NCBI GenBank assembly: GCA_016187225.1 | Contig: JACPKC010000007.1 | Span: 7,654 to 71,653 of the forward strand | Direction of reading: 5' to 3' | DNA from: Candidatus Berkelbacteria bacterium | Lineage (GTDB): Bacteria; Patescibacteriota; UBA1384; JACPKC01 | DNA length: 64,000 nt | Part shown: piece after piece, positions 15,048-64,000 of the stretch | How positions within the stretch are numbered: the stretch's first letter is position 1 | How the letters are laid out: the number at the start of each line of letters is the position of its first letter | Position numbers and translations under genes: made by a program | The notes under the pieces: model-generated | What the model saw: the letters and a program-made list of their open reading frames with translations, nothing else | What the model was told of the DNA's origin: nothing | Database searches by the model: none

Positions 15048-15053
15048 ATATTT

Positions 15054-41163: not shown

Positions 41164-41389
41164 TCTTGTAAAGACACTGCGGCGTTATCAGCTCGAGAAA
41201 AAATTTGCCAAACAGCTAGCGCTCTTTATTAACAATCCTCGTCACCCATCACTTAATACCGAATTACTTGAACCGAAAAAGCGGGGGCTTTATTCATTAC
41301 GAATCGATCGAAAATTTCGGGCAATCTATATTTTTCTTAGCCGCGATTTAGCGGAAATTATCAGCATCACGCATCACTATAATGATTAA
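41135..41389 (+). CDS. RelE/ParE-superfamily toxin
   Basis: ...KKFAKQLALFINNPRHPSLNTELLEPKKRGLYSLRIDRKFRAIYIF...DLAEIISITHHY matches the RelE fold pattern (Kxx-kQl..l, yelRi..kyRiiY, hHY). The gene is 84 aa and overlaps the antitoxin by 29 nt. Confidence 0.55.
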   Translation: MPSVAHLRPDLVKTLRRYQLEKKFAKQLALFINNPRHPSLNTELLEPKKRGLYSLRIDRKFRAIYIFLSRDLAEIISITHHYND

Positions 41390-48626: not shown

Positions 48627-49973
48627 ATGTTTAGGTTATTGATTGATCTGCGCTCAATTTGGAGAAACTTGTCCAAAAGCTTTGTCAGAACTATCCAGGC
48701 TTTTGGGTTATTTTTGCTTATGTCCGGCATTTTCTTAAGCCAAATAGCTTTACCGACCCAATTAGTTCAGGCCGAAACTGCTATCAGCGCCGGCAGTATC
48801 GAAGAGGCTCAACGCCTTGCGACACCTCAAGGGTCTGTAGAATTTTCGAAAACGGTCGATGAAAACAAAAAAACGGTTAAAATTACAGTTAATTTTCGAA
48901 AACCCCAAGCGGGCGACGACATTTCAAAAACGCTTGATGTGACATATAACAATATCGTTGTTGCCGCTTATCATTTTTCAAGTTACAAACTCCTCCTGCA
49001 GGAAAAAAGTGGTAATAATCCTCAATTTCTGCGAGAAGGCGGGCTGGGCGAAGGTCAAATAAATGATCAGACAGCAAATGAAAGAAGTATCTCCAGTATT
49101 CATGATCTTAAATTGCCTTCATCTGGTTCGGAGACATATCGCTATAAGGTGAGCGCTACCTATGTGACTACGTCCAAGATAACTCAAGCTGCGCTTAATC
49201 AGATTACTGACCCATTCATCAGAACCGCCATCAACACGCTTCTGGGTAAAATTCCAGAAAAAATTTTCGGGGAATCGAGTGTTTCTGAAGTCACGCTCTA
49301 TTCAGATGGAACAACGAGCTTGAATGACGCAGAAGGCGACACAAAACCAGTTTTGACTGGCACTGCCAGCTTCGAAAATAACAAAAATCGATACGCCGTC
49401 ACGCTTAATTGGACAGTCGACAAACAACCAGATGACTCACCTCCCTACACTCTTTATCGACGCGTTAAAGAATCGACAGACACTGATTTCAGGAATTGGG
49501 CGTCAGTTTCTTCCCCAAGCGAAACCACCGAAACAGATACCGTTAAAGTCAATCCCGACACTTCTAAAACTGTCGAGTATTCAGTCATGGCTAACTATAC
49601 AGATTCAAGTATTCAATCGAGTCAAAAAACCAGTAATAGCGTCTCTTTTGAACTTAGCGCCGATAAAGACGGCAAACCGGTCGATAAGAACGGCAAGTCG
49701 ATAAAAGGACGGATTCCTGGGGCCAAGGGCGAAACGCCAGACATTACCAAACTCGGCAACCAAGCAAATACCACTGGCGAAAAATCGAGCGGTGTCGGTG
49801 GCGACTGCGATAAGGTGATTGAAAAGATTCAATTTGAAGGTATCAGCGGGCAATTTGCGGAATTTCTTGCTAAACCAATGGCGCAGTTTGCATGTTTACT
49901 TGCCGATCAAGTTTATCAAATGATGCTTAAAATGCCTCTCAAGATTGACGCCTGGATACGCACCACAACATGA
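48627..49973 (+). CDS. Secreted/N-anchored hypothetical surface protein (448 aa)
   Basis: Good RBS (GGAGGGG) and an N-terminal anchor helix. A Thr/Ser-rich ectodomain precedes a C-terminal amphipathic segment. The stop overlaps the next start (ATGA). Confidence 0.55.
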   Translation: MFRLLIDLRSIWRNLSKSFVRTIQAFGLFLLMSGIFLSQIALPTQLVQAETAISAGSIEEAQRLATPQGSVEFSKTVDENKKTVKITVNFRKPQAGDDISKTLDVTYNNIVVAAYHFSSYKLLLQEKSGNNPQFLREGGLGEGQINDQTANERSISSIHDLKLPSSGSETYRYKVSATYVTTSKITQAALNQITDPFIRTAINTLLGKIPEKIFGESSVSEVTLYSDGTTSLNDAEGDTKPVLTGTASFENNKNRYAVTLNWTVDKQPDDSPPYTLYRRVKESTDTDFRNWASVSSPSETTETDTVKVNPDTSKTVEYSVMANYTDSSIQSSQKTSNSVSFELSADKDGKPVDKNGKSIKGRIPGAKGETPDITKLGNQANTTGEKSSGVGGDCDKVIEKIQFEGISGQFAEFLAKPMAQFACLLADQVYQMMLKMPLKIDAWIRTTT

Positions 49974-52216
49974 AAAAATTGATCCTCCTCATTTTGGCAA
50001 TCACCGTCCTGACTATTTTAGAACCAAGTCCTGTCTATGCGCTTAATAGTCTTCAAGATCTTATCCGAAAAGAAGATGGCGGCTTGCGTCAGCTCTGGGA
50101 ATTTTCTCGGTCTTTGATCAATTATCTGATGGTGGCGTTCTTAATGATGGTTGCCTTCGCCAACACGCTCCGCATCAACATCGATACCTATGGCGTTAAA
50201 AAGGTTCTGCCTAATCTGATTATCGCCTTTTTGCTGGCTAATTTTAGTTTGTTTTTAGCTCAAATCGTGCTCGATCTCGCTGATTCCTTAACTTGTTCGT
50301 CATATATGATCGCTAGCAAAGAAGCTTGTGGCACGCAAAGCATGAGCCCAGCCGCTTCAGTGATGGTTGATTTTGCCAGAGGAATGGGCGGGGGCTCAAA
50401 AACAGCGGCTGGGATCATTCTTGGCGTTGGTGGGGTAGGAGGACTCGCGGCAGGCGGTCTGGCCGGGGCCTTAATTAGTTTGATTCCGGGAGTGAATTTT
50501 GCCGCCGGCGCCGCCGCTTTGATAGGCGTGGCTCTCGCTTGCGTAATCATATTCTTACTCGCCCTCGTTCCAACTATTTTGATGCTAGTTCTCTGGGCAA
50601 TGTTTATTATCCGTTTTTACTTTCTTCAATTTTTAATTGCCGCCGCGCCCGCCGCCTTTATCCTAATGGCTTTCCCATTCGGAAAAAATATTTTTAATAA
50701 GTGGCTTAATCAATTTCTAACCTGGGCATTTATGAAGCCGATCGCGTTTCTCCTGATGGCGCTCGGGAGTATTATCATCCAGAATCCGCTCGGCGATGCA
50801 ATGGGCTGGGTGGTGAGTTTTTTTGTGGCGGGCGGAGCGATCATCGCCGCAGTGACCGTGCCCTGGAAACTTGGATCAGCGGTCAATAGCATGATAAGCG
50901 GTTTATTGCGTCGGGCTGGCGCCTTTGGCTGGAATAGTACTCGTTTAGGCTTAGCCGGCGTAGGAAGTAAGCTAAAAGATCGCAAAGATTGGGCGGGTAG
51001 GCTTGGTCGAGGTATGAGTGCGACCGCGGGTGTAATGTCGGCTCCAATAGCAATCAAAGAGGTGCTTGACAAAAATCGCCACGATGCCGAACTCGAAGCC
51101 CGAGCCGAAGGCGCGAGCATGATTGGCAACAAAACTTTGCGGCGGCAAGTTGATGACACGCGCATTGCCGAAAAAGCTAAAGAAATTGAAGATAAATCTG
51201 CGCCCGAGCTGGGCGAAATGCTTGGCGAAGCCGCTAAAAGACACGATAAACATCTGGTCCAAGCAATTCTGCAAAAACTCTACAAAGATGGCAATGCAGA
51301 ATTTACTCTCTATGACATGGTTCAGAATAAGATGCTCGATGAAGAAGGCGCCCTGACCGATCTTGCCAAAGAGATTGGTTTGAGCACAGAAGAAATTACG
51401 GATCTTAAAAAGAAGGGCCCAACCGGCAAAGGTTTGAGCAAGCTCACGATGAGCATGCTTGGCGCTCAATTTGAGGATGTTGAGGTAACAGAATATAAGT
51501 TGGACAAGGATGGCAAGTCAACACAAGAAGAAGTTACAAAGACAAAGATTAAGGACAGCGGTGATTTTGTGGCTCGAATGCGTGAACGCCTTGAAGGGAT
51601 TGCGCTTGGCCAAAACCGCACGCATGAATTTGGAACGATTGAACGTGATCCCAAAAAACCCGGCGATCAATTTCTTAGAAGCGATGCCGAGATTGCTAAA
51701 ATAGGCGCAACTATCGGCAAAGATGACCCTCAAGTCATGCTCGCTAAGGCCGAGGGCGACGCGTGGTTGAAACATCGCGGCGAGGAAAAAGGTCTGCAGG
51801 ATACTGTCCTCCAGCGGATCGAGGACGGCAGTATCAACCTTGGCACTTTTGAGCATATCGATCGATTATCTGGCAAGGTGCGCGGTTTGATTAATAGTGA
51901 TCCCAAAGTAGCGGCCGGGGTTCAGAGAGATTTGACTAAAAAATCACAAGAGATGTTGGCGAAATACAATTCTGCTATGAAGACTGGAGACTTTGGAAAA
52001 GCAAAACAACATTATCTGGCTTATGCGACCGCGGAAGTCGCCAAATTAGGCCTGAAATCAGACTACTCGCGCGAAGAAGTGAACGTGGCCCGAAAAAAAT
52101 TTATCGAGAGATCAGATAAAAGATTTGGTTCTTTACTTAAAGAGACGCCTCAATCTCAAGAACCTCCTATACCACTCGGGGGACCCGCAGATCCCAATAA
52201 TATGCCTAACCCATGA
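49970..52216 (+). CDS. Polytopic membrane protein with a Gly-rich loop region and a long charged C-terminal domain; VirB6/TrbL-like (tentative)
   Basis: Signal peptide, at least 6 TM helices with GxxxG-rich segments, and a 400-aa hydrophilic tail. It sits in an operon that ends in PrgI/VirB4-like genes. The family assignment is inferred from topology and context only. Confidence 0.4.
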   Translation: MKKLILLILAITVLTILEPSPVYALNSLQDLIRKEDGGLRQLWEFSRSLINYLMVAFLMMVAFANTLRINIDTYGVKKVLPNLIIAFLLANFSLFLAQIVLDLADSLTCSSYMIASKEACGTQSMSPAASVMVDFARGMGGGSKTAAGIILGVGGVGGLAAGGLAGALISLIPGVNFAAGAAALIGVALACVIIFLLALVPTILMLVLWAMFIIRFYFLQFLIAAAPAAFILMAFPFGKNIFNKWLNQFLTWAFMKPIAFLLMALGSIIIQNPLGDAMGWVVSFFVAGGAIIAAVTVPWKLGSAVNSMISGLLRRAGAFGWNSTRLGLAGVGSKLKDRKDWAGRLGRGMSATAGVMSAPIAIKEVLDKNRHDAELEARAEGASMIGNKTLRRQVDDTRIAEKAKEIEDKSAPELGEMLGEAAKRHDKHLVQAILQKLYKDGNAEFTLYDMVQNKMLDEEGALTDLAKEIGLSTEEITDLKKKGPTGKGLSKLTMSMLGAQFEDVEVTEYKLDKDGKSTQEEVTKTKIKDSGDFVARMRERLEGIALGQNRTHEFGTIERDPKKPGDQFLRSDAEIAKIGATIGKDDPQVMLAKAEGDAWLKHRGEEKGLQDTVLQRIEDGSINLGTFEHIDRLSGKVRGLINSDPKVAAGVQRDLTKKSQEMLAKYNSAMKTGDFGKAKQHYLAYATAEVAKLGLKSDYSREEVNVARKKFIERSDKRFGSLLKETPQSQEPPIPLGGPADPNNMPNP

Positions 52217-53313
52217 CGACCGAACCTCAACCCCAAATCACTATCGCGAATTATCAAAAAACGCTTACCCAAGCAGTCGGGCAACTTCGCGAGTTTTTGA
52301 TTCCGCTCAAACGCGGGGAAATAACCTCGATTCCGCTTGATCCTCTCATCGAGCGAGTCACTAAATTTCACAAACGTTTCCAGGCGCGGCTGACAGCCGA
52401 CACAGCTCTGGGCTTGCCAAAAACAGAGATCGCCGAGCATCTCGTGCAAGAAACGGTCTCGCAAATTCATAATTTAACCGCGGTTCTGGATGAGATCCAG
52501 GCGACTCAACCCAAAACAACATCCGCAATCGACCTCCCGCGCGCGGCGCTTCGTTACAACCAACGCGCGGCCGTGTTAACTCAACTCTTAACTTCGAATC
52601 TCCAGTTGCAAAATACAACCGTTCTCAAAGAAGAACATGCCCGAATCGCCGAAGTCAATGCGGTCAGCGCCGAACATGAAACCTGGGTGCCACTGCAAGC
52701 CTTGAGCCAAAAAGGGAGCGAAGACCTTTTGCGTATTATTACTCGCGCGATCCCGGTTGATCCTTTGATCGACGAGGACATCAGCTCGCTTTTGGGAGTG
52801 TTTCTGCGAGGCGCGCATACGGAAACAGCTATCCAACGCCTCGAGACCGGGCAACAATCACTCCGAGGTGATTCTGTCGCGCTTCGCGCCCTGGCGGACT
52901 CGCAACAATTTCGCGATGTTGTGGCCGCCACTTTCGTGCCTTTGTTTTCACGCCTTTTGAAGCAAGAAAAAATCGAAGCCTATGAGGATGAGTTTCGAAA
53001 CGTCTACTTTACGGTGGTTAAGGAAGTTCAGAAGTATTACCAGTATAAGAAGCAAGCACAACCGCCGGCGCCAACTCTGCAAGTGCAGGCCGATGACCAG
53101 CCCAAGCCGACACCAGCGCCAATACCAAGTCAGACAAAGCTCGTGCCCCCGCAGTCTGCACCGCCGGCGCCGCCGAGTCTTCCAAAAACGCCTCAATCTC
53201 CACCATTCTCAATCGAACCCACGACCGCCGAGGTGGTTGGAATCAAGGTCAACCGCAAGGGCCAAGGCAATACGCCAGGCAAACGACCGATCACACCCAT
53301 CCCAACAGAATAA
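52213..53313 (+). CDS. Hypothetical soluble protein with a Pro-rich C-terminus (366 aa)
   Basis: Translationally coupled to the upstream gene (ATGA overlap). No recognisable domain. Confidence 0.5.
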   Translation: MTTEPQPQITIANYQKTLTQAVGQLREFLIPLKRGEITSIPLDPLIERVTKFHKRFQARLTADTALGLPKTEIAEHLVQETVSQIHNLTAVLDEIQATQPKTTSAIDLPRAALRYNQRAAVLTQLLTSNLQLQNTTVLKEEHARIAEVNAVSAEHETWVPLQALSQKGSEDLLRIITRAIPVDPLIDEDISSLLGVFLRGAHTETAIQRLETGQQSLRGDSVALRALADSQQFRDVVAATFVPLFSRLLKQEKIEAYEDEFRNVYFTVVKEVQKYYQYKKQAQPPAPTLQVQADDQPKPTPAPIPSQTKLVPPQSAPPAPPSLPKTPQSPPFSIEPTTAEVVGIKVNRKGQGNTPGKRPITPIPTE

Positions 53314-53470
53314 CTGCCATACACCTACGAGGTGAAAGGAACGAGGTGTCATTTGGATAGTGATTGCGACCGTTGACAAATCCCTCCTGTTTATGGTATG
53401 AAGTCTCGTTTCGCTTGCGATAAACGGGCGGAACAATTTTTGCCCCAAATGGGGCCGGAGGGATTTAACA

Positions 53471-54982
53471 ATGAGGTTTTTTGTTCTGGTGATTTTGGTT
53501 GCTTTTTTTTCTTTTTTGACGGCGGGCGCGGGCTTTGCCCAGGATCCGATGATCCTCTACCCAAACGCCGGGGCGCGTTTTCAGGTCGATCCTGAAAAGC
53601 CCCTAAAGATGTACTTCATGGGCACCGCGCCGGCTGGCGCCGAGTGGGTACGGGTGAAATGGGACGGGCAAAACTTGCCCGGGCTCGTCGACGTGAAGCC
53701 CGATGGAACCTGGCGAGGTTTCGTCTCGCTCGGCTCGCTTGAAAGGCAAAACGGCGCGTATCTTTCGCGCGACAAGGAATTTGTCGCGCAAGCGCTCGAT
53801 GAAAGTCGAACGCGCCAGATCGGCGATCAACGAACCGTCACGGTTGCGGTTGTGCCGGCGCCGGCGCGCATCGAGGTTGATGACCTCGAACGAGAGATGC
53901 GGATGCGCGCCGAGCGCCAACAAGTACCGGCGTGGATCTGGTGGGGTTTGGGCGCCGTGATGATTGTAATTCTCTGGTACCGCTTTTGGCCGCGGTGCCT
54001 CGTTTACGAGGATCCGACACCGCGGTACGCGGCCGGCCACGAGATTAAACTCAACCGGCCGAGCCATAAGGGGCTGTGTTGGGGAGGTTTCGCGGTTGAT
54101 GAGCGAACTCCATTACCGCCTGGCCTCTCCTTTGTGGATGGCCAACTCGGCAACGCCCCGCCCCGAACCTCGGCGTCCGGCATCCTGGCCGGAACGCCAG
54201 GAGCGCCAGCTCCGCCTGCACCAGGAGCGCCAGCAATGGCGGCCGGCACCTACGACGTGCGCATCATCGGCGGGCTTTTTGCCACCACCGGCCCCTGGAG
54301 CTATCTCGGATGGTGCCGAACAACCGTGACTATCACGGTTGAGGCTCAAACGCGGCGCGTCGTGAAATACAACGACGACATCGCCGTGGTTTGGGAGGCC
54401 GGCAAATGGGCAAGTGTCAAGCCCAAGACCGAGCCCAAGGACATGGAATGGCAGTTCGCCATTGTGACCGTTGTGCCACGGGCGCCCTGGCTCGCCGTTA
54501 ATCCAACGACGGGCGAATTGAGCGGCAGGCCACCCGCCCCACCGGTTCCACCCGTGGCAGGAGCGGCGCCCCCGCCAGACACCTGGCAAGTGGTAGTCTG
54601 GGCCACGAACGTGCGGACTCCGATCGGAGTCGTGCCGATCACGGTCACGATCCACGCCCAAGCGCCGGAGGCCCAGACGCGCCAACCGAGCCTCACCTAC
54701 GAAGTGGTGAGAATGGCTTGTCGGCCTGGCCAACTGGTCTCGCCGAACGCGCCGCGACTCGACCCGCCCGGCACGCTGGCAAATGGATACACCATTCTGC
54801 CAGACCTGCCAGGCGGCATGGTCTGCCGGCCAAGTGATGGGATCATTGCCGGCACACCAGGGGCGGAGCGAGACGGCCAGACCTACACGATCCAGGCGTG
54901 GAACGGCCCGGCCTTCGTCGCCCAGGCCGCCGTTTGGATCGAGGTCAAGGCGCCTGGAGCGCCAGCGGGCGGTGGCAAATGA
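53471..54982 (+). CDS. Secreted protein with a TM anchor and three putative-Ig (He_PIG/dystroglycan-cadherin-like) repeats; GC-rich
   Basis: Signal peptide MRFFVLVILVAFFSFLTAGAGFA. The repeats LPPGLSFVDGQL...GTYDVRIIGG, NPTTGELSGRPPA... and YTILPDLPGGMVCRPSDGIIAGTP...QTYTIQAWNG match the L-P-x-G-L-x(n)-G-x-[LI]-x-G-T-P...G-T-Y pattern of putative Ig domains. Confidence 0.6.
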   Translation: MRFFVLVILVAFFSFLTAGAGFAQDPMILYPNAGARFQVDPEKPLKMYFMGTAPAGAEWVRVKWDGQNLPGLVDVKPDGTWRGFVSLGSLERQNGAYLSRDKEFVAQALDESRTRQIGDQRTVTVAVVPAPARIEVDDLEREMRMRAERQQVPAWIWWGLGAVMIVILWYRFWPRCLVYEDPTPRYAAGHEIKLNRPSHKGLCWGGFAVDERTPLPPGLSFVDGQLGNAPPRTSASGILAGTPGAPAPPAPGAPAMAAGTYDVRIIGGLFATTGPWSYLGWCRTTVTITVEAQTRRVVKYNDDIAVVWEAGKWASVKPKTEPKDMEWQFAIVTVVPRAPWLAVNPTTGELSGRPPAPPVPPVAGAAPPPDTWQVVVWATNVRTPIGVVPITVTIHAQAPEAQTRQPSLTYEVVRMACRPGQLVSPNAPRLDPPGTLANGYTILPDLPGGMVCRPSDGIIAGTPGAERDGQTYTIQAWNGPAFVAQAAVWIEVKAPGAPAGGGK

Positions 54983-55129
54983 GGTAATCGGTCTCCCGGC
55001 GGCGCCGGCGATGGGCCTTAAATACGACGAGTAATGCCCTGGGGTTTGATCCCCAGGGCATTTTTTATCTCAAAGAACTTTCTCACTTACTCGAAAAAAA
55101 TACTTTTTCAACGGTCTCCTCATAGAGAC

Positions 55130-55159
55130 TTGACAAAACAGCCTGACTTGTGATTTAAT
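55130..55159 (+). promoter_or_regulatory. Sigma70-like promoter (TTGACA, 18 bp spacer, TGaTTTAAT extended -10) with a ~200-nt leader
   Basis: -35 TTGACA at 55130-55135, a TG at 55151-55152 and TTTAAT at 55154-55159. The gene start is at 55359. Confidence 0.4.
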
Positions 55160-55358
55160 CTCACGTTTTAACAATTCGGAATCGATGACGACGTAGCCAT
55201 TGTTGGTGAAACGTGAATAGTGAAGCGTTTGATGCTTAATCGCTGACTCTTAACGACTCGCGCTTTACCACCGGATGGGTGCGTCGTCGTCGACAAGAAA
55301 TCCCGGCCGGGTTCGGTCGGCGGCGCGCTCCCAAAAAACCAGAAAGGAGGTGGCTCGC

Positions 55359-56111
55359 ATGTTGCGAACCACCGCATTGATCATCACTATTTTTTTCTTT
55401 TTCTCCTCTGCCTTTCCCGTCTGGGCGGAGACCGAGGTCGAGGCTCTGCAGAGCCTCCTCGGAACCGCCACCGCAACCTGGACGAAGGACCAGGGGTGGC
55501 GGGTTACCTTCCCGAAAGGGAAGCAATACCCGGCGGAGGCGGCTCACGCCGTCGAGGCGCTGTTGAATCGGGGAGAGGGACGGGTTGAGAAAGGAAAAAT
55601 CCGCCTCAACCCGAAGGCCGATATCGGCCAGCTCAAGCTGGCGGACGCCCGGCTGGCGTTCGTCCTGCAGGGGGTCGCTCGCGACCTCCGGCAACAAAAC
55701 CTGGAGATGGCGGGGCGGATGGCGGGCGTGGAGACCCGCGCCGACAACCTCGAGGAGTGGCAGAAAAATGTGGCGCCACTCCTCAAGGGAATCGGCCAGC
55801 CGAGCTGGGTGGCGTGGACCGCGCTCGCGGTTGCCATTCTGGCACTGATCGCGGCGCTTTGGAAGCGCCGCTCAACGGTCGAGCCGGCCGAGGAGCAAGA
55901 GGAGCCGGCTCGATCGCCGACTCGGCAACAACCGGCTCCGCCGGCGCGGCCGACTCCGCCGTCCCAGGGGGGACCCAAGCCAACGCTTCCGGCTCGGCCA
56001 GGACCGGCGCCAGCCATCCCCTCCCCAACGCCCGCCGCGCCCCCGGCTCGGCCGGCGCCTCTGCCGGTTCCTAACACGGAGCCGGAGGAGGAAAACGATT
56101 CGGCCGCTTAA
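55359..56111 (+). CDS. Secreted single-pass membrane protein with a Pro-rich cytoplasmic tail (hypothetical), GC-rich
   Basis: MLRTTALIITIFFFFSSAFPVWA signal peptide, a TM helix WVAWTALAVAILALIAALW, and a C-terminal P/A-rich tail. Confidence 0.55.
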   Translation: MLRTTALIITIFFFFSSAFPVWAETEVEALQSLLGTATATWTKDQGWRVTFPKGKQYPAEAAHAVEALLNRGEGRVEKGKIRLNPKADIGQLKLADARLAFVLQGVARDLRQQNLEMAGRMAGVETRADNLEEWQKNVAPLLKGIGQPSWVAWTALAVAILALIAALWKRRSTVEPAEEQEEPARSPTRQQPAPPARPTPPSQGGPKPTLPARPGPAPAIPSPTPAAPPARPAPLPVPNTEPEEENDSAA

Positions 56112-56130
56112 AAACGGCCGGGGTACCGAA

Positions 56131-56164
56131 GAGAGGTCGTCTCACGACGCCTCTCTTTTTCTTT
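56131..56164 (+). terminator. Rho-independent terminator after the GC-rich gene pair
   Basis: GAGAGGTCGTC-TCAC-GACGCCTCTC followed by TTTTTCTTT. An additional CGGCCG palindrome hairpin spans the stop codon (56101-56120). Confidence 0.55.
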
Positions 56165-56171
56165 GCCCCTT

Positions 56172-56180
56172 TGTTATAAT
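56172..56180 (+). promoter_or_regulatory. Extended -10 promoter (TGtTATAAT) for the downstream operon
   Basis: TGTTATAAT at 56172-56180, RBS AAGGAGGG at 56191-56198 and ATG at 56202. Confidence 0.5.
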
Positions 56181-56201
56181 ATGAACAATAAAGGAGGGAA
56201 G

Positions 56202-56567
56202 ATGGCAGATCACTTCACCACAAATCCACTTGATCCGGCGGCGTTATTTGAAGAGAATATTTTTGTTCTGCTTGGCTTAAACGATCTACCTGAAGAAAAA
56301 AAGGCGGCTCTGCGCGAACAGATGTTAAGTTCAGTTCGCGACCGCGCTTTGGTTCGCATCTACGATCTCTTGCCCAAAGAAGAACAACAAAAATTCAATG
56401 AGGCACTTGAAAAAGAAGACCAAGAAACCATTCAACAACTTTTGAGTCGCAATAAACTTGACCTGTCTAAATTAATGGTCGAGGAAGCAATTCTTTATAA
56501 ATTGCGCCTAACGCAAGCAAGCGAACAACTTGAGGATGCCGCCCATGCTGAAAAATCAGCCACCTAA
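56202..56567 (+). CDS. Small acidic hypothetical protein (first gene of the operon)
   Basis: ATG with a strong SD. 121 aa, helical and acidic. Confidence 0.55.
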   Translation: MADHFTTNPLDPAALFEENIFVLLGLNDLPEEKKAALREQMLSSVRDRALVRIYDLLPKEEQQKFNEALEKEDQETIQQLLSRNKLDLSKLMVEEAILYKLRLTQASEQLEDAAHAEKSAT

Positions 56568-59500
56568 TAGCGTCAACTCACCGGATTCAGACGAAGAAGG
56601 TTCAAACGAATCTCCTGAAAATGATTCGCGCGACTCGGCTGATGAAGTTATCGAAGAAATCTCGCAAGAGCTTAATAAACGTGAAAAGGAAATTAGTGAT
56701 CTTGTCAAAGAATTTTGTCGATTAGATCGCGAACGCCGGCAAGCGCGTTTTGGCGGCGGCGACCAAGCGGTCGGCAAGTTGTGGAATCCAAAAGAAATCG
56801 CTCGCCGCTGGGGCAACCTGCGCGATTCACTCCACCGCGTGGGCGCGCGCGTTTTTAATGAGAAATCAGGCACATTCGCTTTTGACAAAAACAAGTATGA
56901 GAAACGAGTTTTAGCCGCCCTTGGAGAATCAGCGGCTGGCTTTATAGGCGCTGGCGCAATTTTATTCTCCGGTTTTGGAAGTTATGTGGCGCCCACTCTG
57001 TTTGGGCACTTCTTAAAAGAGGGCATCGACGGCCTGGCAAAAAGCACTCAATTTATACTGGGCAAAAAACAGTGGAACGCCGAGATGGTGACTCAAGTTG
57101 CGTTCGACCTAAAAATCAAAAAATTTCTTGAAAGTGGCAAGGAATATGATGAGGGGCAATTTACTCAAGCCAAAGTCGAACTTATCGATATGGATGCCGA
57201 AATTGCCAGCCTTCAAGCCAAACACCATGCCTCGGATAAAAAATGGACCTTTTGGCGCAAGCTGACTTCAGGCTTTGCAACTGGCGGGGTCGCGTATGGC
57301 GTCACGGGTGTTCCGCTTGGCGTCCACAATTTCGATCCAGGCATTGGTGATGGTTTTACCAATGTAGTCGACAATACGTCGCAACATGGAATAATTGGAT
57401 CCTTGCGCAAATTCCATCGCGTCCTCTGGGGAGCGCAAGGTGGAGAATTTGCGTATGGGCCTGGAGAGTACGAAAGTATAAAAAAAATCGTTGACGATCA
57501 TGGCGGAGTACTCGAAAAAGTAACACACTTTCTAGGAGAGACCCGCCATACACTTGGCCACGGCTTGCCGTCGGGCCTGAAAAACTCGCTTTGGATCGCC
57601 GCTGGATATTTGGGGATTCAAAGTATCTGGGATGGCGCGCAAGGCAGAAATGCGGGCACGCAAACTCGCAAAAGGATTGAAAAAATGATCCACGATGATT
57701 ACGTGTCGTCGGCGCCACCAACTGAAGCGGGGCAAGCGCCAACGCCCGAGCCTCCATTGTCTCTAGGAACGCCAGGCGACGAATCACCGCCTTCGCCTGA
57801 ACCCAAACTACCCTCTGTTCCATCTCCTCAACCACCCGAGGACGCGGTGCAACGAACAAGTAAAGAGGAGAAAAAGATTAAAGACTTTCAATTGGCTTTT
57901 AGTCAACCGTGGATTCTGCGAAAAGATGGTCTACCTCTGGATATTGTAGGCAAAAAAATTAAGGTGATTTTCGGGCGAGGAAATGTCAAGAATGTCAAGA
58001 GTGATATTTCAGCCTTCACGACAGTCCACGACCAAGACACTCGTCGCGGCCGCGTAGTAGTCTATTTGTCTAACGAGATAAAAGAGAAGCTAACAGTCCA
58101 TCTGGATAAACGCGGTGTTAGTGGAGTATTCAATGATGAAACTCGAGTTGCAGACATAGAGCTTTTCGTCGCTGGCATTCGCGAGGATCAAGGGCAGGCG
58201 CAGTTGGAAGTTAGCTTTCAACGTCCCTCAACACCATCAACCCCAACCCAATCGGAACCTCAAGTTTCTATGCCAGCGCCAATCCAGGAACAGGAAACGG
58301 AGATAAGGGAAGGGATTGAGGGGTTGGAGTGGCGAGAGAGGCTGACTTTTGAACAATTTAAGCAAATTCTTGACAACGCGACGGCGCTTTATCGGCACGA
58401 AATTGAAAACGGAAAACCGATTTTTGAGGGCGTAGAAAAGATTGACCAATTGCAACCGGTTGCAGAAATTACCCGCGACGACGCGTTGATTGTTTTCCCT
58501 AAAGATGTGCAAGTCTTCACTCTTGGCGACCTGCACGGCGATACACGCGTCCTGCATTCTTTTCTGAAAAAAACAGACCTTGTCGCAAAAATGCAACGCG
58601 GGGAAAAGGTGGCGCTTCTCGTTCTCGGCGACATGCTGGATCGCGGCGCTCAAAGTTCAGAACTCTTGGCGACCTTGCTCTCGCTCAAGCTTGCATTCCC
58701 AAAACAAGTAGTTCTCCTGCGCGGCGATCACGAGGATGTTGCAATAAATTGTGATTTTGTACAAAATGCTCGGAATTCCTACCACACAAAGACATTTGGT
58801 GCGCATGAGATACTAGGTAACACCGAGACTGAGTGGGAAAAAAAGTTTGGTGCAAAGAATACAGAGATAATTAAAAACACTCACACGCTTCTCTACGGAG
58901 GCCTCCCCTATGCCGCGGTGCTACCAAACGGATTTGTGGCAACCCATGCCGGTGTGCCTTATGAACTGAATAGATTAGAGGCATGGACGACACCCAACGA
59001 AAAACGGCAGACACAATTCATGTGGGGCGATTATACTGATAGAGAATTACTATCGGGTCTTGGTGATGCTGATAACGCTTCAGTATTGACCCGAGAAAAT
59101 CCCGGCCGCGTCTACATGTTTGGCAATCAATTAATCCGGCATTTGAAAGAAAAATTCGGCATTCAGGGTCTGGTCCGCGGCCACGAGCATGACCGACAAC
59201 CATTTCGGAATCAAGATAGCACTGTCTTTACCCTCGTCTCTTCAGGAGAGGTGGTGAGCGACACTAATAGACTCCGCTATGGCTTATTGCAAAGCGATGG
59301 TACGTTCTCCGCATACCCCTTGGAGTTTAAGCCCGAATACCCCAAGGGCGTGTTCCTTGCCGCGACTCAATCTCGGGAGCAAGGTCAGTCAAAACTTATT
59401 GATCGCTACTACGAGCTTGTCAGCACTTTGAAGAATGACTATCTCAATAAAATTGTAACGGTTGAGGTGCGCCGATCAAGGCTTGACGGGTATCTTAATT

Positions 59501-60027
59501 ACCGAATTCCTCAAATTCAAGACTCGCTAAACGATGAAAATATTGTTCTCGAGATGCCTCAAAAAGAACGCAATCGAATGCGCGCGGAGCTTGACCAGAA
59601 AAACAAAAGCGAAGCCCAACTTAAAATTTCTGAAATAAAATTTGTTCTCGGTAAAGATTCCAAGCCAAAGATTAAGATTGAACTCCAAATCCCCGAACAT
59701 GAGCCCGAACCAAGTCCTGAACAACAAAAACCTTTGCTTTCAAATTTCTCTGCTCAAGAGAATGAGATTCTCGATCAGTTGGTCGACCGAGCCAGCGATC
59801 CAGACTCGTACATATTAGTTTTAAGCGAGGCAGAGCTTGAACTTTGCAGAAAACTCGTTCTTCAAATCCCTTGGCAAGTAATCCGCAAGGGCAAGCGAAG
59901 AACTTCCAAAGAGAATGAGGCTTGCGACAAGCTTCAGGTAGCTCTTGAGTCGCCGGAGGGATGTATCCAAAACTCTCAAGAATTTGCCGAGAATATTACT
60001 TGTATGAGGTTGTTCATTGAGGATTAG
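56530..60027 (+). CDS. Giant membrane-associated protein with a C-terminal PPP-family (calcineurin-like) Ser/Thr phosphatase / metallophosphoesterase domain
   Basis: Motifs in order: GDLHGD (GDxHG), GDMLDRG (GDxxDRG), RGDHE (a GNHE variant with N to D), HAG, and RGHEH. Two hydrophobic helices lie in the N-terminal third, with acidic low-complexity regions. 1165 aa. Confidence 0.7.
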   Translation: MRMPPMLKNQPPNSVNSPDSDEEGSNESPENDSRDSADEVIEEISQELNKREKEISDLVKEFCRLDRERRQARFGGGDQAVGKLWNPKEIARRWGNLRDSLHRVGARVFNEKSGTFAFDKNKYEKRVLAALGESAAGFIGAGAILFSGFGSYVAPTLFGHFLKEGIDGLAKSTQFILGKKQWNAEMVTQVAFDLKIKKFLESGKEYDEGQFTQAKVELIDMDAEIASLQAKHHASDKKWTFWRKLTSGFATGGVAYGVTGVPLGVHNFDPGIGDGFTNVVDNTSQHGIIGSLRKFHRVLWGAQGGEFAYGPGEYESIKKIVDDHGGVLEKVTHFLGETRHTLGHGLPSGLKNSLWIAAGYLGIQSIWDGAQGRNAGTQTRKRIEKMIHDDYVSSAPPTEAGQAPTPEPPLSLGTPGDESPPSPEPKLPSVPSPQPPEDAVQRTSKEEKKIKDFQLAFSQPWILRKDGLPLDIVGKKIKVIFGRGNVKNVKSDISAFTTVHDQDTRRGRVVVYLSNEIKEKLTVHLDKRGVSGVFNDETRVADIELFVAGIREDQGQAQLEVSFQRPSTPSTPTQSEPQVSMPAPIQEQETEIREGIEGLEWRERLTFEQFKQILDNATALYRHEIENGKPIFEGVEKIDQLQPVAEITRDDALIVFPKDVQVFTLGDLHGDTRVLHSFLKKTDLVAKMQRGEKVALLVLGDMLDRGAQSSELLATLLSLKLAFPKQVVLLRGDHEDVAINCDFVQNARNSYHTKTFGAHEILGNTETEWEKKFGAKNTEIIKNTHTLLYGGLPYAAVLPNGFVATHAGVPYELNRLEAWTTPNEKRQTQFMWGDYTDRELLSGLGDADNASVLTRENPGRVYMFGNQLIRHLKEKFGIQGLVRGHEHDRQPFRNQDSTVFTLVSSGEVVSDTNRLRYGLLQSDGTFSAYPLEFKPEYPKGVFLAATQSREQGQSKLIDRYYELVSTLKNDYLNKIVTVEVRRSRLDGYLNYRIPQIQDSLNDENIVLEMPQKERNRMRAELDQKNKSEAQLKISEIKFVLGKDSKPKIKIELQIPEHEPEPSPEQQKPLLSNFSAQENEILDQLVDRASDPDSYILVLSEAELELCRKLVLQIPWQVIRKGKRRTSKENEACDKLQVALESPEGCIQNSQEFAENITCMRLFIED

Positions 60028-60085
60028 TCATTGACCCTAGAACCAGTTCCGTAAATCCTGCGTAATCTTTTGCCATTGCGAGGTG

Positions 60086-60142
60086 CCAAGGGTGATGAAG
60101 CAATCTAATAGGATAGGGTCGCCACGCTTCGCTCGCATGACA
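60086..60142. repeat. P2 intergenic repeat, second copy (with a degenerate P1 at 60068-60083)
   Basis: See 33135-33192. Confidence 0.65.
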
Positions 60143-60225
60143 AAGTCTGTTTGCGATGACGTCTAAAGAGAAAGGTGAGAAAGTCATAAACATTTTTGTT
60201 ATAGTAAAAATATCTAGGAGGGAGA

Positions 60226-62844
60226 GTGGAACAGCAGGGGTCGCGCAAAGAGACGCTGGCTGAATTGGTTGGTCTGGAAATCCAGTCGCTCAATCAAGCA
60301 CCAACCAAGCCATCCGCCGTAAAGCGGGTTGGGTTAGAGCAGGGTGAGATTGTTTCGCCTCGCTTGAGCGAGACTCGCAATGACAAGAGCGACAAAATTT
60401 TTCGCAATAATAGAGAAAGCGGTGTGCCTCTTTCCGTTGAACACGCCGAGCGATTGGAGCAGGTTCGAGAACAAATTCAAGACCTGAAAACGATCGCCGA
60501 ATGCGCGCGCCAACTGACCGTCCGCTTAAGCGAACTCGCGGCTCAACAAAAGCCCGACTTGCCAGCCGAGGTCGCAAAAATATGGGCAAATGCCAGCAGT
60601 CAAATCGCCAGGTATTTGAATCAGCCGGTCCAGATCGGCGCTGGCGCAACGCCGCACTCGCTCGAGGAAGCGCAAGAACAGTTTGAACACTGGATCAGCT
60701 TGTTTTGCGAAAATGCCGCTGGTCCCGACGGAACTGGCCTTCAAGATGATCCCGACCGTCTCCGAAGCTTCCAGGGAAAACTCGAAAATATCGAACCGCT
60801 TGCAAGCACACTCGCCAAAAACGGGCGCGCGCTCGTGGCGCAGAAAGAACTTACTTTAGAGTATCTCCAAGCAAGCGCCCAGGAAACTTATGCCAAGGCG
60901 CATAAAAATACCGAGCGACTCAAGGCGATCGATCAAGCGGCGCGGCCTCTTCAGGCGCATTGGCTTGAGGCTCTTCAGCAGGAAAAACGCGAACTCGAAC
61001 AGTTGAAGGCTGATCTCAAAAAAATCAGCGGGGAACACCAGCTTTCAGCAACGCTCTTGGCAAAGACAGATGAAGGCATTCAAATTCTCAACCATCTTTC
61101 CACCGAACCGCTCGAACAAGCGCAGATTTCAATTGCCGAATGGGTGGGCAAATTTCGCGAGGCTGAAGATTTTACCGCTGAAAAAGTCCGCGAGCGGATT
61201 CAAACCGACCTCAAAACTCCATTTCAAAAACTTGCCGGACGCATTGAGGAATTGAGGCGCGCGTATGATCCCGACCGCTTAAAAAAAATTTATGAGGCCG
61301 AGCTAAAAAAAGAGCGCGGGGTAGTGATTGAGGAGGCGCAGAATCTTTTAGGCGCGCTTAAAGCCCGAACGAGCGTGCTCACCAACTTGCGGCGCGAAAA
61401 ACTCGGCTCAAAGCCAGACGTGCGGTTCTTTGGCGAAATTGCCAAACAAGTCAACACCGCGATTACCGCTTTGAGCGAGGCCGAGATGAGCTTGCTCGAA
61501 GCGATCAGCGCGCTCAAAGATGCTCCGCTCGTCTCCAAAAACGCCGCGAGTTTTACCGAAAGCCAGGCGAAGGCTAAAAAATTACTCATCCAAACTCAAA
61601 ATTTTGCCGCTCGCAACAAAATTGAGGAACTTTTGGCCACGAGCTGGAAAACCAGCCTGACGCCGCTCAAGGAAGTTCTTGAAACCGCCCGCAAGCGGGA
61701 GATAAGCGCCAAAGCGCTGGCGGATAAGTACAGCCGACATCCTGGCTTCGATACCGCGCTTGCCGCTGACCTGAAAATTAAAACTCAAGCGTTAACCACT
61801 GCTTGCGCCCGAGCAACGGAATTTATCACCGATCACGAAAAGCAGTCAGGCGGGGCCAAGGAGCTGACTGCCCAGCGCGAGCGGCTTATGCAAACAATTC
61901 AAGCGGCGGCGCAAGCGCTTGAACCCTACACCGATGAGACGCGCCTGATGGCCAAGCTTGAAGCCAACAAAGAGCGAACTGAAGAACGACGAGTTGAAGA
62001 GGAACGGCAGGCGCGCGAAGAAGAGGCAAGGCGACGCTCAACACTCTTGCCGCGTCTCGTTACTCTCACGCATGAGGCAAGCCATCTAGCGAGTCAATTT
62101 CGCCGGGCGCTCGGTTATGCCACCCAACTCGAGCAGTACGACAGCTCGCGCGCGCTTGAGTTATACCAAAAGCTCACTGCGCTCGCTGAAACGAATTTCA
62201 ACTCTCAAGTCAGCGCCCTTCCACCGCTTGGCGAGATCATCTCGCAAGGCAAATTTCTCACGGAGCTAAAAACGCGTTTTGAATCTGCTGAACATTCAAC
62301 GAATGAAATTGAAATCGAGATTAGCCAGATCGAAGTCGCCTTGGGTGAAAACGGCCGCGCGAGCGAGCTTTTCCGCGAATTTAATGATTTGGAAAATAGA
62401 TATCCACTGACCGCCTATCGAACGCGCGGTCAATTAAGTCATCTGCTAACCGTCCGAGTTGATCAGTTTGAGCAAAAACTTTTTCGTAGGCGGACGCCAG
62501 AACTCGACATCTTTCGCGAAGAGGTTGTGTGGTTGCGTGAAGAGATAGAGCGTTTTCAAAACGAACCACCGCAAAAAGCGACAGAGCGAGGCGCCAAATT
62601 AGAGGCGCGCCTGAAAGCGCTTGGCGAACGCTTGGCGTCACTCGAAGAACGAACTGAAAATGAGTTTGTTGAGCGCGAGGCTGTCTCAACTCAAGAAAAC
62701 CGCGCTTTGCGGATGAAGCTTCAGGCGCTTTTGCGCGATCAATCGGACTATCAAAGTTATCCAATCAAAATCGACCAGGAAGCGAATCATCCTCAACCCC
62801 AAGTATCTCAAGACGCGAGTGAGACAATTCGGATTCATCGCTAA
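60226..62844 (+). CDS. Giant coiled-coil hypothetical protein (872 aa), GTG start
   Basis: GTG at 60226 preceded by TAGGAGGGAGA. The sequence is almost entirely heptad-like, with E/K/R/Q/L-rich helices and no TM segment. Confidence 0.6.
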   Translation: MEQQGSRKETLAELVGLEIQSLNQAPTKPSAVKRVGLEQGEIVSPRLSETRNDKSDKIFRNNRESGVPLSVEHAERLEQVREQIQDLKTIAECARQLTVRLSELAAQQKPDLPAEVAKIWANASSQIARYLNQPVQIGAGATPHSLEEAQEQFEHWISLFCENAAGPDGTGLQDDPDRLRSFQGKLENIEPLASTLAKNGRALVAQKELTLEYLQASAQETYAKAHKNTERLKAIDQAARPLQAHWLEALQQEKRELEQLKADLKKISGEHQLSATLLAKTDEGIQILNHLSTEPLEQAQISIAEWVGKFREAEDFTAEKVRERIQTDLKTPFQKLAGRIEELRRAYDPDRLKKIYEAELKKERGVVIEEAQNLLGALKARTSVLTNLRREKLGSKPDVRFFGEIAKQVNTAITALSEAEMSLLEAISALKDAPLVSKNAASFTESQAKAKKLLIQTQNFAARNKIEELLATSWKTSLTPLKEVLETARKREISAKALADKYSRHPGFDTALAADLKIKTQALTTACARATEFITDHEKQSGGAKELTAQRERLMQTIQAAAQALEPYTDETRLMAKLEANKERTEERRVEEERQAREEEARRRSTLLPRLVTLTHEASHLASQFRRALGYATQLEQYDSSRALELYQKLTALAETNFNSQVSALPPLGEIISQGKFLTELKTRFESAEHSTNEIEIEISQIEVALGENGRASELFREFNDLENRYPLTAYRTRGQLSHLLTVRVDQFEQKLFRRRTPELDIFREEVVWLREEIERFQNEPPQKATERGAKLEARLKALGERLASLEERTENEFVEREAVSTQENRALRMKLQALLRDQSDYQSYPIKIDQEANHPQPQVSQDASETIRIHR

Positions 62845-62884
62845 CTGCTCATGTTATACTAGGTAGGAATACCCAGGAGGGCTG

Positions 62885-63364
62885 ATGCGGTATCGCGTTC
62901 CGCAGAATATTGATATGGAGGATCGGATTATTGGGCCGCTGACAATGGCTCAATTTGTCTATCTCATGCTCGGCGGCATGATTATTTATGTTTCCTATCT
63001 GCTTTTCATCCCACCGGTCTTTTTCGCAATCGCTTTTGGAGTCGGCATCTTAACCCTCTCAATGACTTTTCTTAAAATCCAGGACCAGCCTTTCCCAAAA
63101 TTCATCGCGGCGACCCTTTTGTATTTGGTCAAACCCAAACAACGGACTTGGCAAAAAGACCCAACGCTCCAGCACATGAAGGTGATTGAAAAAACCGCAA
63201 CCACGCCTGAACAAAAATCTGTCCCGGGGCAAACCGTGACTAAAATCGAGCTCAATGATCTATCGCAACTTTTAGATACCGGAGGCAGAATAGAGCCGCA
63301 AAAACTTCAAACCCAGCCTGCTCTGGAGGAAAAATCCAAAAAAATCGACACGAGTTGGAAATAA
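62885..63364 (+). CDS. PrgI/VirB3-like small membrane protein of Gram-positive-type type IV secretion systems
   Basis: MRYRVPQNIDMEDRIIGPLTMAQFVYLMLGG followed by two TM helices matches the PrgI-family N-terminal signature. It sits immediately upstream of a VirB4-like ORF, as in prgI-prgJ. Confidence 0.5.
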   Translation: MRYRVPQNIDMEDRIIGPLTMAQFVYLMLGGMIIYVSYLLFIPPVFFAIAFGVGILTLSMTFLKIQDQPFPKFIAATLLYLVKPKQRTWQKDPTLQHMKVIEKTATTPEQKSVPGQTVTKIELNDLSQLLDTGGRIEPQKLQTQPALEEKSKKIDTSWK

Positions 63365-63369
63365 TCATT

Positions 63370-64000
63370 ATGTTCCGCACTCGCGCCAAACGCACCCAAA
63401 AAAGCACCCAAGCCTATTTAGATATCGCCGCGATTAAAGATGGGGTTGTGGTTTTGCAAAATGGCGGCTTGCGCGCCGTGTTGGCGGTGACGTCAGTTAA
63501 CTTCGCCTTAAAATCGCCCGAGGAGCAAGAGGATATCGTCTTGCGCTATCAAGGTTTTTTGAACTCTCTCCACTATCCTTTGCAAATTATGATGCAATCG
63601 CGCAAGTTAGATCTGGCCGACTACCTAACGCGCCTGCGCCAGCGAGGCGAAACAGAAGGCAACGAACAGATCAAAAATCAGATCGCGGCCTACACTGATT
63701 TTATGGAAAAACTTCTCGCGGTCGCCAACATTATGGATAAACGCTTTTATGTGGTGGTCAGTTACGATCCGGAGTCGCTCAAATCCAAGAGCTTTCTCGA
63801 CAAACTTCTCCATCCGTCCAAGCAAATTACAATTAGCATGACGGAGCAGGAATTTCAGCGTTACACAACTCAACTCAATGAACGAGTCAACTTGATTGGT
63901 TCAGGACTCGCTTCAATCGGACTCAAGGCCGCAATGCTCACCACTAAACAACTGATCGAGCTTTACTACTCAACATATAATCCCGAAGAAGCGGTTAAAG
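63370..64000 (+). CDS. VirB4/PrgJ/TraE-like type IV secretion ATPase, N-terminal 210 aa (partial; continues beyond the window end)
   Basis: My own translation from ATG 63370 gives MFRTRAKRTQKSTQAYLDIAAIKDGVVVLQNGGLRAVLAVTSVNFALKSPEEQEDIVLRYQGFLNSLHYPLQIMMQSRKLDLADYL... This is the characteristic N-domain pattern of Gram-positive VirB4 homologues. The frame is open to the last base of the window. Confidence 0.55.
   Translation, partial: MFRTRAKRTQKSTQAYLDIAAIKDGVVVLQNGGLRAVLAVTSVNFALKSPEEQEDIVLRYQGFLNSLHYPLQIMMQSRKLDLADYLTRLRQRGETEGNEQIKNQIAAYTDFMEKLLAVANIMDKRFYVVVSYDPESLKSKSFLDKLLHPSKQITISMTEQEFQRYTTQLNERVNLIGSGLASIGLKAAMLTTKQLIELYYSTYNPEEAVK

Follow-up and report, generated by a model that had tools for sequence, protein, structure and literature searches.

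Type IV secretion systems (T4SS) occur widely in the Patescibacteria (candidate phyla radiation, CPR). A survey of 3,035 genomes of the phylum found VirB4 in 2,417 of them, and most of these VirB4 sequences fall into a single clade within the monoderm MPF-FATA class (PMC12102498). In the same survey, the locus is chromosomal, TrsD is the commonest neighbor of VirB4, homologs of PrgI, VirB6, and VirB1 as well as arrays of VirB2-like pilins occur, and relaxases were found in 103 of the 3,035 genomes, rarely near virB4 (PMC12102498). In the one species tested, Southlakia epibionticum, transposon sequencing (Tn-seq) identified the T4SS cluster as essential for epibiotic growth (Wang et al. 2023, PMC10633639). 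The role of the Patescibacteria T4SS has been called “completely unknown” in a review (PMC11665869), effector delivery and the uptake of host material have been raised as roles (PMC11665869, PMC12857230), and the papers cited here on these systems name no substrate. Here, we describe a putative T4SS locus in a 64,000-nucleotide stretch of DNA, referred to as the window, from a Candidatus Berkelbacteria bacterium (Patescibacteria/CPR).

The block at positions 48627–64000 of the window probably encodes a chromosomal Patescibacteria T4SS that serves the interaction with a host bacterium and carries conserved, lineage-specific accessory genes as candidate parts or cargo. A preliminary description, made from the letters of the window, had rightly recognized a T4SS here, but its class is already published: it is the Patescibacteria T4SS, a known kind of system with its origin in monoderm MPF-FATA machinery. 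Finding a monoderm-type T4SS in a CPR genome is nothing new in itself. What is new is an expanded, lineage-specific form of the locus, in which a gap of seven genes (∼10.7 kb) between virB6 and prgI holds a handful of new gene families of very narrow distribution.

According to the list of open reading frames (ORFs) and their translations, the block is an unbroken run of ten genes on the plus strand. The preliminary description had the common strand right but counted nine, apparently having missed the small DUF5663 gene; the ATGA start/stop overlaps that it placed at 49970 and 52213 are exact. Two public contigs were found through the exact 159-amino acid PrgI-like protein (labels L001–L033 denote the public contigs and loci used for comparison in this analysis). 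L001, one of the two, matches the window without a difference over an overlap of 11,116 nucleotides and adds 9.4 kb downstream, and window and L001 together give ∼73 kb of sequence. The features of the locus are as follows; positions beyond 64000 are window-equivalent positions on L001.

48627–49973, plus strand: p448, 448 aa, Sec-exported, coupled to virB6 through an ATGA overlap
49970–52216, plus strand: p748, VirB6-like, 748 aa, polytopic
52213–53313, plus strand: p366, 366 aa, helical, coupled to virB6 through an ATGA overlap
53471–54982, plus strand: p503, 503 aa, exported, Ig-like repeats, first gene of a cassette rich in GC at third codon positions (GC3)
55033–55062, plus strand: hairpin resembling an intrinsic terminator, 12-bp stem with 8 G-C pairs, then TTTTAT
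55359–56111, plus strand: p250, 250 aa, type I membrane protein, second gene of the GC3-rich cassette
56202–56567, plus strand: DUF5663 gene, 121 aa, overlapping the start of p1160 by 23 nt
56545–60027, plus strand: p1160, 1160 aa (1165 aa from an upstream TTG at 56530), PPP phosphatase domain
60226–62844, plus strand: cc872, predicted 872-aa rod, all-α, directly upstream of prgI
62885–63364, plus strand: PrgI/VirB3-like protein, 159 aa, two transmembrane (TM) segments
63370–64000 on the window, plus strand: TrsD-like VirB4 N-domain protein, 238 aa when complete, ending ∼86 nt past the window
64079–66115: VirB4 ATPase, 678 aa, overlapping the trsD-like gene by 8 nt
66125–67318 (13241–14434 on L001): SLT hydrolase, 397 aa
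67308–68354: β-propeller-like exported protein, 348 aa
from ∼72380: giant 1850-aa protein, the last of four genes after the β-propeller gene

Components of the secretion core

In its composition, the locus resembles the Patescibacteria T4SS described before (Quinonero-Coronel et al. 2025, PMC12102498; PMC10633639). It is chromosomal and of monoderm type, has PrgI/VirB3 and a separate TrsD-like gene ahead of its VirB4, encodes a peptidoglycan hydrolase downstream of virB4 as well as a polytopic VirB6-like protein, and lacks a relaxase and a nearby coupling protein; the relatives of its VirB4 are Patescibacteria. In contrast to the described systems, in which virB6 and prgI are adjacent, the two genes are parted here by the seven-gene gap, no VirB2-like pilin array lies within the 73 kb, and the locus stands beside tsaD and not near dnaA. 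With the MPF-FATA systems (pCF10 Prg/Pcf, CTn2 of the CD1110 type, and pGO1 Trs), it shares a PrgI family protein, a CD1110-type VirB4 that scores above the cut-off, a TrsD-like protein, a PrgH/VirB6-like polytopic protein, and an SLT VirB1-like hydrolase with an extra C-terminal domain. Unlike these systems, it has no relaxase, type IV coupling protein (T4CP), oriT-processing genes, or PrgB-type adhesin and no recognizable VirB8-like protein of the PrgL/TcpC type; its VirB4 is split, and it is not located on a mobile element.

The PrgI-like protein matches PF12666 with 34.6 bits (gathering score, 27) and contains two hydrophobic segments. Its orthologs lie upstream of trsD–virB4 in 21 of 23 related loci, the two exceptions being truncated contigs. 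The ORF that follows at 63370 matches the NCBIfam TrsD model with E values of 6.7e-9 to 8.4e-9, which is under the model cut-off of 200 bits, and it aligns to positions 10–127 of the CD1110-type VirB4 model; on L001, the family PF26593 (TraC-like) is listed for it. The next gene aligns to positions 182–734 of the same VirB4 model. VirB4 is split into a TrsD-like N-domain protein and a separate ATPase. The latter scores 369.8 bits with NF045971 (CD1110 family; curated cut-off, 325), also matches P-loop_TraG and AAA_10, and features the Walker A motif ASGAGKS and the Walker B motif VVVDEAW.

The preliminary description had placed a VirB4-like ATPase at 63370, with its N terminus off the window. 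This ORF is indeed related to VirB4, but it corresponds to the N-domain, its C terminus and not its N terminus runs off the window, and the ATPase is the adjacent gene. It had also named a 63370 ORF that is not an ATPase as an outcome that would speak against a T4SS; taken literally, this is what we find, but the ATPase next to it leaves the assignment intact in substance. Two of the downstream features that it proposed to look for, Walker motifs of VirB4 and a VirB1-like gene, are found on the L001 extension.

The VirB1-like gene encodes a hydrolase whose SLT domain scores 82 bits (cut-off, 21.3) and which possesses a second, C-terminal domain. Residues 284–373 of the protein are 44% identical to the C-terminal part of a protein of L003 (7192–8430), which in turn is homologous to a separate 401-residue protein with two TM segments located downstream in L001 (17064–18269). 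A homolog of this p401 family in L031 is annotated as Peptidase_C39_2. If the domain shared by the SLT protein and p401 is a Peptidase_C39_2 domain, two copies of a cysteine peptidase-like module would flank the core.

p748 shows ∼9 hydrophobic segments; it has a signal peptide and ∼8 TM segments, followed by a hydrophilic C-terminal domain of ∼400 residues and a Pro-rich tail, a layout known as “extended VirB6.” A jackhmmer search groups it with the polytopic protein that 13 Saccharimonadia relatives encode in their T4SS loci, mostly directly upstream of prgI. Within the p748 family, 7 of 15 members match Pfam TrbL/VirB6 (best E value, 8.6e-8), and others match TrbL_3 and TrbL_4. The best PDB match of the family profile is TrwI, the VirB6 of R388 (E = 0.0033). 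Homologs of full length occur in L029 (29%) and L031 (31%).

Together, these similarities indicate that the T4SS core is real and consists of VirB6, PrgI/VirB3, a split VirB4, and a lytic transglycosylase. The PrgI-like gene, the VirB6/TrbL-like polytopic protein, and the Gram-positive (monoderm) type had all been proposed in the preliminary description; the first is borne out by PF12666, the second through its family and not by a direct match, and the third by the VirB4 ATPase and the SLT hydrolase beyond the window. In GTDB species genomes, 23 relatives of the VirB4 share 50–84% identity with it, and all come from Patescibacteria, Saccharibacteria, or unclassified metagenome-assembled genomes.

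The locus is chromosomal, being flanked by tsaD, leuS, and polA, and the flanking housekeeping genes have a similar GC content. tsaD is found beside the T4SS locus in the relatives L029 and L031, too, which argues for vertical inheritance of the locus. A Pfam scan of all window ORFs of at least 198 aa and of the extension genes detected no relaxase and no VirD4/TcpA-type domain. The only FtsK-like gene (25990–28110) carries the 4TM, alpha, and gamma domains, i.e. the full architecture of a chromosomal FtsK. The earlier statements that the window holds no relaxase or coupling protein and that the locus is not a textbook conjugation module agree with this and extend to the 9.4 kb downstream.

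As previously noted, Pro-rich tails are frequent among the proteins of the locus and are seen directly in the translations; they close the VirB6-like protein (52100–52216), p366 (53080–53313), and p250 (55900–56111). The VirB4 ATPase is also Pro-rich at its C terminus (13100–13231 on L001), which is unusual for VirB4.

Accessory genes between virB6 and prgI

In 14 loci of Saccharimonadia, the gene order is pilin array, extended virB6, prgI, trsD, virB4, and virB6 touches prgI. Six of the seven genes that fill this position here recur in T4SS loci of a few close relatives, even where prgI–trsD–virB4 is inverted. In a presence/absence matrix, the accessory families are confined to loci with a VirB4 that is 71–84% identical, plus L026, and are absent from the Saccharimonadia loci at 50–58%. 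The accessory genes are an expansion of the T4SS locus specific to this clade. Their conservation argues for a functional link to the T4SS; instead of cargo or effectors, they could equally be structural or regulatory parts. Term searches of Patescibacteria T4SS papers did not find the lineage-restricted families (cc872, p366, DUF5663 plus the N-domain of p1160 with or without PPP, and p250), and a full-text literature search for DUF5663 returned no paper. The part of the survey supplement that is available as text (PMC12102498) names neither DUF5663 nor Metallophos. A word-indexed homolog search gave four matches for p748, two for p1160, and only the profile itself for cc872.

Clear Sec signal peptides can be read from the translations of p748, p503, and p250; p448 begins with a signal or an anchor. 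No signal peptide is apparent in the translations of p366, the DUF5663 protein, p1160, and cc872.

cc872 is the lineage-specific hallmark of this T4SS variant. Its homologs lie beside prgI–trsD–virB4 in six loci (L004, L005, L023, L029, L031, and L033), and in L031 cc872 is still adjacent to the core operon, which is inverted there. Two further homologs are located on the shorter contigs L027 and L028, which end before prgI could appear. When 1.84 billion representative proteins were scanned exhaustively with HMMER, the family came to 16 members, all with E values of at most 1e-35, followed by a next match at 2e-6; scanning metagenomes with the cc872 alignment added only two loci. The family is marked by the motifs ENAAGPDGxGLxDDPxRL and LRRxKLGxxPDxRFFG.

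An AlphaFold2 model of cc872, built from the 16 sequences (pLDDT 78.7), assumes a chain of helical bundles with disordered ends. The 872-residue protein had been described as a coiled-coil protein; its length and all-α nature stand, but it is predicted to be a rod of short antiparallel helical bundles and not a long two-stranded coiled coil. The model has no specific structural relative. Among the closest known systems for helical rods are the three-helix-bundle rods of the EzrA/spectrin type. Following a disordered linker, ∼12 of the 16 members carry a basic C-terminal motif similar to [VI]-x-I-R-[RH], and ∼11 of the 16 carry an N-terminal “GPP,” which is missing from the window copy. These short motifs in the disordered termini look like docking or secretion-signal peptides.

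In L029 and L031, the gene right behind virB6 encodes a homolog of p366 (34% identity, E = 2e-37, and 31.5%, E = 3e-44, respectively); in each of the three loci that show virB6, p366 comes behind it. It has no Pfam or PDB relative, lacks a signal peptide, and ends in a Pro-rich tail. In this lineage, p366 is a conserved partner of VirB6. The DUF5663 protein matches PF18908 just under the cut-off (E = 2.9e-4), and this family is listed for the gene on L001. DUF5663 genes directly precede a large protein in the T4SS loci of L023, L026, and L031 as well.

p448 lies upstream of virB6 and thus outside the seven. Its N-terminal signal or anchor is followed by a β-rich middle part and an amphipathic helical C terminus. 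It has no match in Pfam, NCBIfam, or PHROG and is the only gene of the block without a clear homolog. Positional analogs, both secreted and of similar size, are a 482-residue protein in L029 (pairwise E value, 1.6e-4 over 113 residues) and a 463-residue protein in L006 that has no detectable similarity. An AlphaFold2 model of p448 built without an alignment reached a pLDDT of 40 and was not used.

The largest protein of the block, p1160, comprises an N-domain (residues 1–420) with Gly-rich hydrophobic segments, a Pro-rich linker, a middle domain, the PPP domain, and a C-terminal domain. In the 1165-residue numbering, which starts at TTG 56530, five residues ahead of the 1160-residue call, the PPP domain occupies residues ∼660–890. 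As the preliminary description had proposed for this giant, the domain belongs to the PPP phosphatases: it matches Metallophos (E = 1.8e-14), and its best PDB relatives are the eukaryote-type phosphatases PP1, calcineurin, and BSU1 (E values down to 1e-10). Among PHROG families, its best match is the λ NinI-like phosphatase. The motifs GDLHGD, GDMLDRG, RGDHE, THAG, and RGHEH include all metal-binding motifs, with the exception that Asp replaces Asn in GNHE; given this replacement, catalysis by the domain is uncertain. The stand-alone Metallophos homolog in L026 keeps the canonical GNH.

As a whole, p1160 is nearly an orphan among 5.8 billion clustered proteins. In L026 (where it lies directly upstream of prgI), L005, and L027, its N-domain forms a gene of its own next to T4SS genes, and L026 and L005 have stand-alone Metallophos genes in the vicinity.

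p503 and p250 differ from the remaining genes in their composition. The GC content is 63–67% at 53.8–55.0 kb and 55.4–56.2 kb, compared with 41–58% in the remaining 400-nt bins of the block, and GC3 is 0.70 for p503 and 0.76 for p250, compared with 0.39–0.59 for the other genes measured. The high GC3 indicates that the anomaly is not merely due to Pro, Ala, and Gly codons. Both the GC-rich island and the Ig-like repeats encoded on it had been noted from the letters alone, and both hold. p503 features a clear signal peptide and a TM segment at residues ∼152–172; its repeats are recognized by a weak He_PIG match (E = 4.7e-4, below the cut-off) and by three G-x-[LI]-x-G-x-P hallmarks at residues 237, 348, and 457. 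A promoter-like sequence, TTGACA-17-TATGGT, precedes the gene at 53373, and the hairpin at 55033–55062 closes its transcription unit. Because p503 and p250 have promoter-like boxes of their own in addition to this terminator, the block comprises several transcription units and is not one operon.

p250 starts at ATG 55359, which is preceded by an AGGAGG site, and the gene call on L001 also gives 250 residues; an upstream ATG at 55275 would give 278. Its signal peptide is followed by an ectodomain and one TM segment, beyond which lies a Pro-rich tail that is probably cytoplasmic. Homologs are present in L031 (288 residues, E = 2.6e-8) and in L026 (220 residues, E = 8e-9 over ectodomain and TM segment). 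A counterpart of p503 in L029 (478 residues; pairwise E value, 0.001) agrees with it in position, in TM layout (1, 156), and in the weak He_PIG match. We considered a foreign insertion of unrelated genes and dropped it, because positional and weak sequence counterparts of p503 and p250 exist in the T4SS loci of relatives. Since the relatives with this locus have genomes of 55–60% GC, the simplest reading suggested by these counterparts is that the resident surface-protein genes were replaced by alleles from a GC-richer relative. The surface-protein genes of the locus thus appear to be exchanged between relatives.

Possible functions and rival readings

In the proposed mechanism, VirB6, PrgI, TrsD, and VirB4 would form an ATP-driven channel in the single membrane, and the SLT enzyme would open the cell wall. 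The Sec-exported p448, the Ig-repeat protein p503, the bitopic p250, the β-propeller protein, and the 1850-residue giant may form the part at the cell surface that contacts the host. The signal-less proteins p366, DUF5663, p1160, and cc872 could serve as adaptors or scaffolds at the cytoplasmic face or could be substrates themselves. The purpose would be interaction with the host bacterium, by protein export or by uptake of host material, and not plasmid conjugation. The interleaved proteins are candidate cargo, and the hints on translocation are indirect: p366, p1160, and cc872 lack a signal peptide, and cc872 has disordered termini with a basic C-terminal motif. The locus thereby yields a short list of lineage-restricted, syntenic genes as candidate adaptors or cargo, several of them without export signals and one with a phosphatase domain.

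PPP-fold phosphatases are known as T4SS effectors from Legionella, namely WipA and WipB (PMC5454105, PMC5572681). As in p1160, the eukaryote-type PPP domain of these Dot/Icm proteins is part of a larger protein with a genetic link to a T4SS. However, their system is of type IVB, belongs to a diderm, and has eukaryotic targets, whereas the presumed host here is bacterial, the N terminus of p1160 looks membrane-associated, and there is no detectable sequence relationship beyond the PPP fold. WipA and WipB are a precedent for a PPP effector, not evidence for p1160. A bolder version holds that a small Patescibacteria clade added a cytoplasmic module (cc872, p366, DUF5663, and a membrane-docking domain with or without PPP) that recruits, or is, the first identifiable set of CPR T4SS substrates. 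The phosphatase would then be injected into the host bacterium and rewire Ser/Thr/Tyr phosphorylation there, as an inter-bacterial counterpart of WipA/WipB; we consider this unlikely.

Several observations weigh against a host-interaction T4SS with functionally linked accessory genes. p748 itself has no direct Pfam TrbL match, and its membership in VirB6 is by transitive homology. No VirB8-like component (PrgL/TcpC) was recognized in the block or its extension by Pfam and NCBIfam; p250 and p503 are bitopic and would be candidates by topology only, and the VirB8-like family is seldom recognizable in Patescibacteria (PMC12102498). A hidden Markov model (HMM) that represents 45 proteins of pilin arrays in related loci, run against all six frames of the window and L001, found no VirB2-like pilin (best E value, 0.73). 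The visible downstream sequence amounts to 9.4 kb only, and a coupling protein farther off is possible and common in the phylum (PMC12102498). The placement of VirB4 within the published Patescibacteria clade is taken from its identity to Patescibacteria sequences only. Finally, the several transcription units and the foreign-looking GC3 of two genes are reminders that co-location need not mean co-function, and the combination of PPP and N-domain is absent from L029 and L033 and hence not obligatory.

A weak tblastn match of a pilin to the N-domain of p1160 (E = 0.007) was not reproduced by the pilin HMM, and we treated it as compositional. In L033, whose VirB4 is 78% identical, a 410-residue protein (158–1390) beside the cc872 homolog belongs to the VirB2-like pilin-array family in its N-terminal 140 residues and continues in a long Ser/Thr-rich C-terminal extension. 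The 73 kb from the window genome hold no counterpart of this gene. A system of this kind can thus exist without an adjacent VirB2-like pilin array.

The signals around p503 and p250, together with their GC3, would also fit a set of unrelated passengers, i.e. fast-evolving surface or orphan genes inserted into a split T4SS core, and so would the missing clear homolog of p448, the near-orphan status of the PPP protein, and the variation in virB6–prgI gene content between relatives. What makes passengers improbable is the repeated association of the same families: cc872 adjoins prgI–trsD–virB4 in all six relatives that reach those genes, including the inverted L031, p366 keeps its place behind virB6 and is translationally coupled to it here, and DUF5663 with its large protein, the N-domain family of p1160, and p250 homologs recur in loci as divergent as L026. 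The restriction of cc872 to this lineage, with 16 representatives in 1.84 billion proteins, points in the same direction. Conjugation is even harder to reconcile with the data. The VirB4 belongs to the CD1110 conjugative family, genes for a serine recombinase and a tRNA-Ser are found 31 kb upstream, and a remnant or active integrative and conjugative element (ICE) could have its relaxase, coupling protein, and integrase beyond the 9.4 kb readable downstream. Yet ∼73 kb contain neither relaxase nor T4CP, the locus abuts housekeeping genes of similar GC, its tsaD neighborhood is kept in two relatives with a VirB4 of 74–82% identity, genes for RecA, FtsK, RNase J, PNPase, PolA, and LeuRS stand between the recombinase and the block, and relaxases are scarce across the phylum and rarely close to virB4 (PMC12102498). 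An ICE is thus very improbable.

Two further readings concern what the machine and its phosphatase do. PppA exemplifies how dephosphorylation switches the assembly of type VI secretion, and the PPP protein might similarly be a membrane-anchored regulator that switches assembly of the apparatus and not a secreted effector. p1160 lacks a signal peptide, its hydrophobic N-domain exists as a separate gene beside prgI in L026, and its phosphatase domain is detachable, as L005 and L026 encode it separately and L029 and L033 lack it. Neither the block nor the window contains a recognizable Ser/Thr kinase or FHA-domain partner, however, the Asp in GNHE makes activity uncertain, and the Legionella phosphatases of this fold are established effectors (PMC5454105, PMC5572681); we regard a regulator as a tentative option that is somewhat less likely than not to apply. 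Alternatively, the machine could import host DNA, RNA, or nucleotides in the manner of ComB or Ced, with a PPP/ApaH-like metallophosphoesterase handling nucleotides. Uptake has been raised in a review because these cells are unable to make nucleotides (PMC11665869), the VirB4 is weakly similar to the archaeal import ATPases CedB and CedD (E = 7e-12 and 2e-6), and the phosphatase domain scores weakly against the Ap4A hydrolase ApaH (E = 1.8e-4). This CedB similarity is far below that to conjugative VirB4 (E = 2.8e-110), the catalytic domain is closest to the protein phosphatases PP1, calcineurin, and BSU1 and to the λ NinI-like family, and Pfam and NCBIfam revealed no DNA-binding or nuclease domain in the block, all of which renders import quite unlikely. 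A T4SS for host interaction with lineage-specific parts or cargo consequently stays the best explanation of the locus.

Genomic surroundings of the locus

Upstream of the block, the window encodes FemAB, TsaD, leucyl-tRNA synthetase (LeuRS), a split PolA, the δ subunit of DNA polymerase III, polynucleotide phosphorylase (PNPase), RNase J, FtsK, RecA, and an envelope-glycan cluster. PHROG gave no sign of a phage origin, as no gene of the block matched except through the phosphatase domain. PolA is divided into two ORFs that overlap by 4 nt, one for the 5′–3′ exonuclease (42606–43748) and one for the polymerase domain (41386–42609); a Pfam scan found no 3′–5′ exonuclease domain in either. Two sizeable ORFs among the housekeeping genes, at 22458–23804 (448 aa, plus strand) and 30933–32984 (683 aa, minus strand), have no Pfam match at E ≤ 1e-4, and an Rfam scan of the window returned no family beyond tRNAs.

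The gene for the large serine recombinase (16077–17834, plus strand; Resolvase, Recombinase, and Zn_ribbon_recom domains) runs at its 3′ end into a tRNA-Ser(GCT) gene on the opposite strand (17780–17869). The neighboring segment at 14–16 kb has a GC content of 38% and encodes a DUF2157-like membrane protein. The region of recombinase and tRNA-Ser (14000–17870 of the window) may be an element integrated at a tRNA gene.

The envelope-glycan cluster is located on the minus strand at 785–12192. It comprises a family 2 glycosyltransferase (GT2), a PMT_2-type mannosyltransferase, a protein similar to Wzy_C/O-antigen ligase, two GT1 enzymes, a Mur ligase, and a flippase, and it is followed by two tRNA-Arg genes at 13099–13351.

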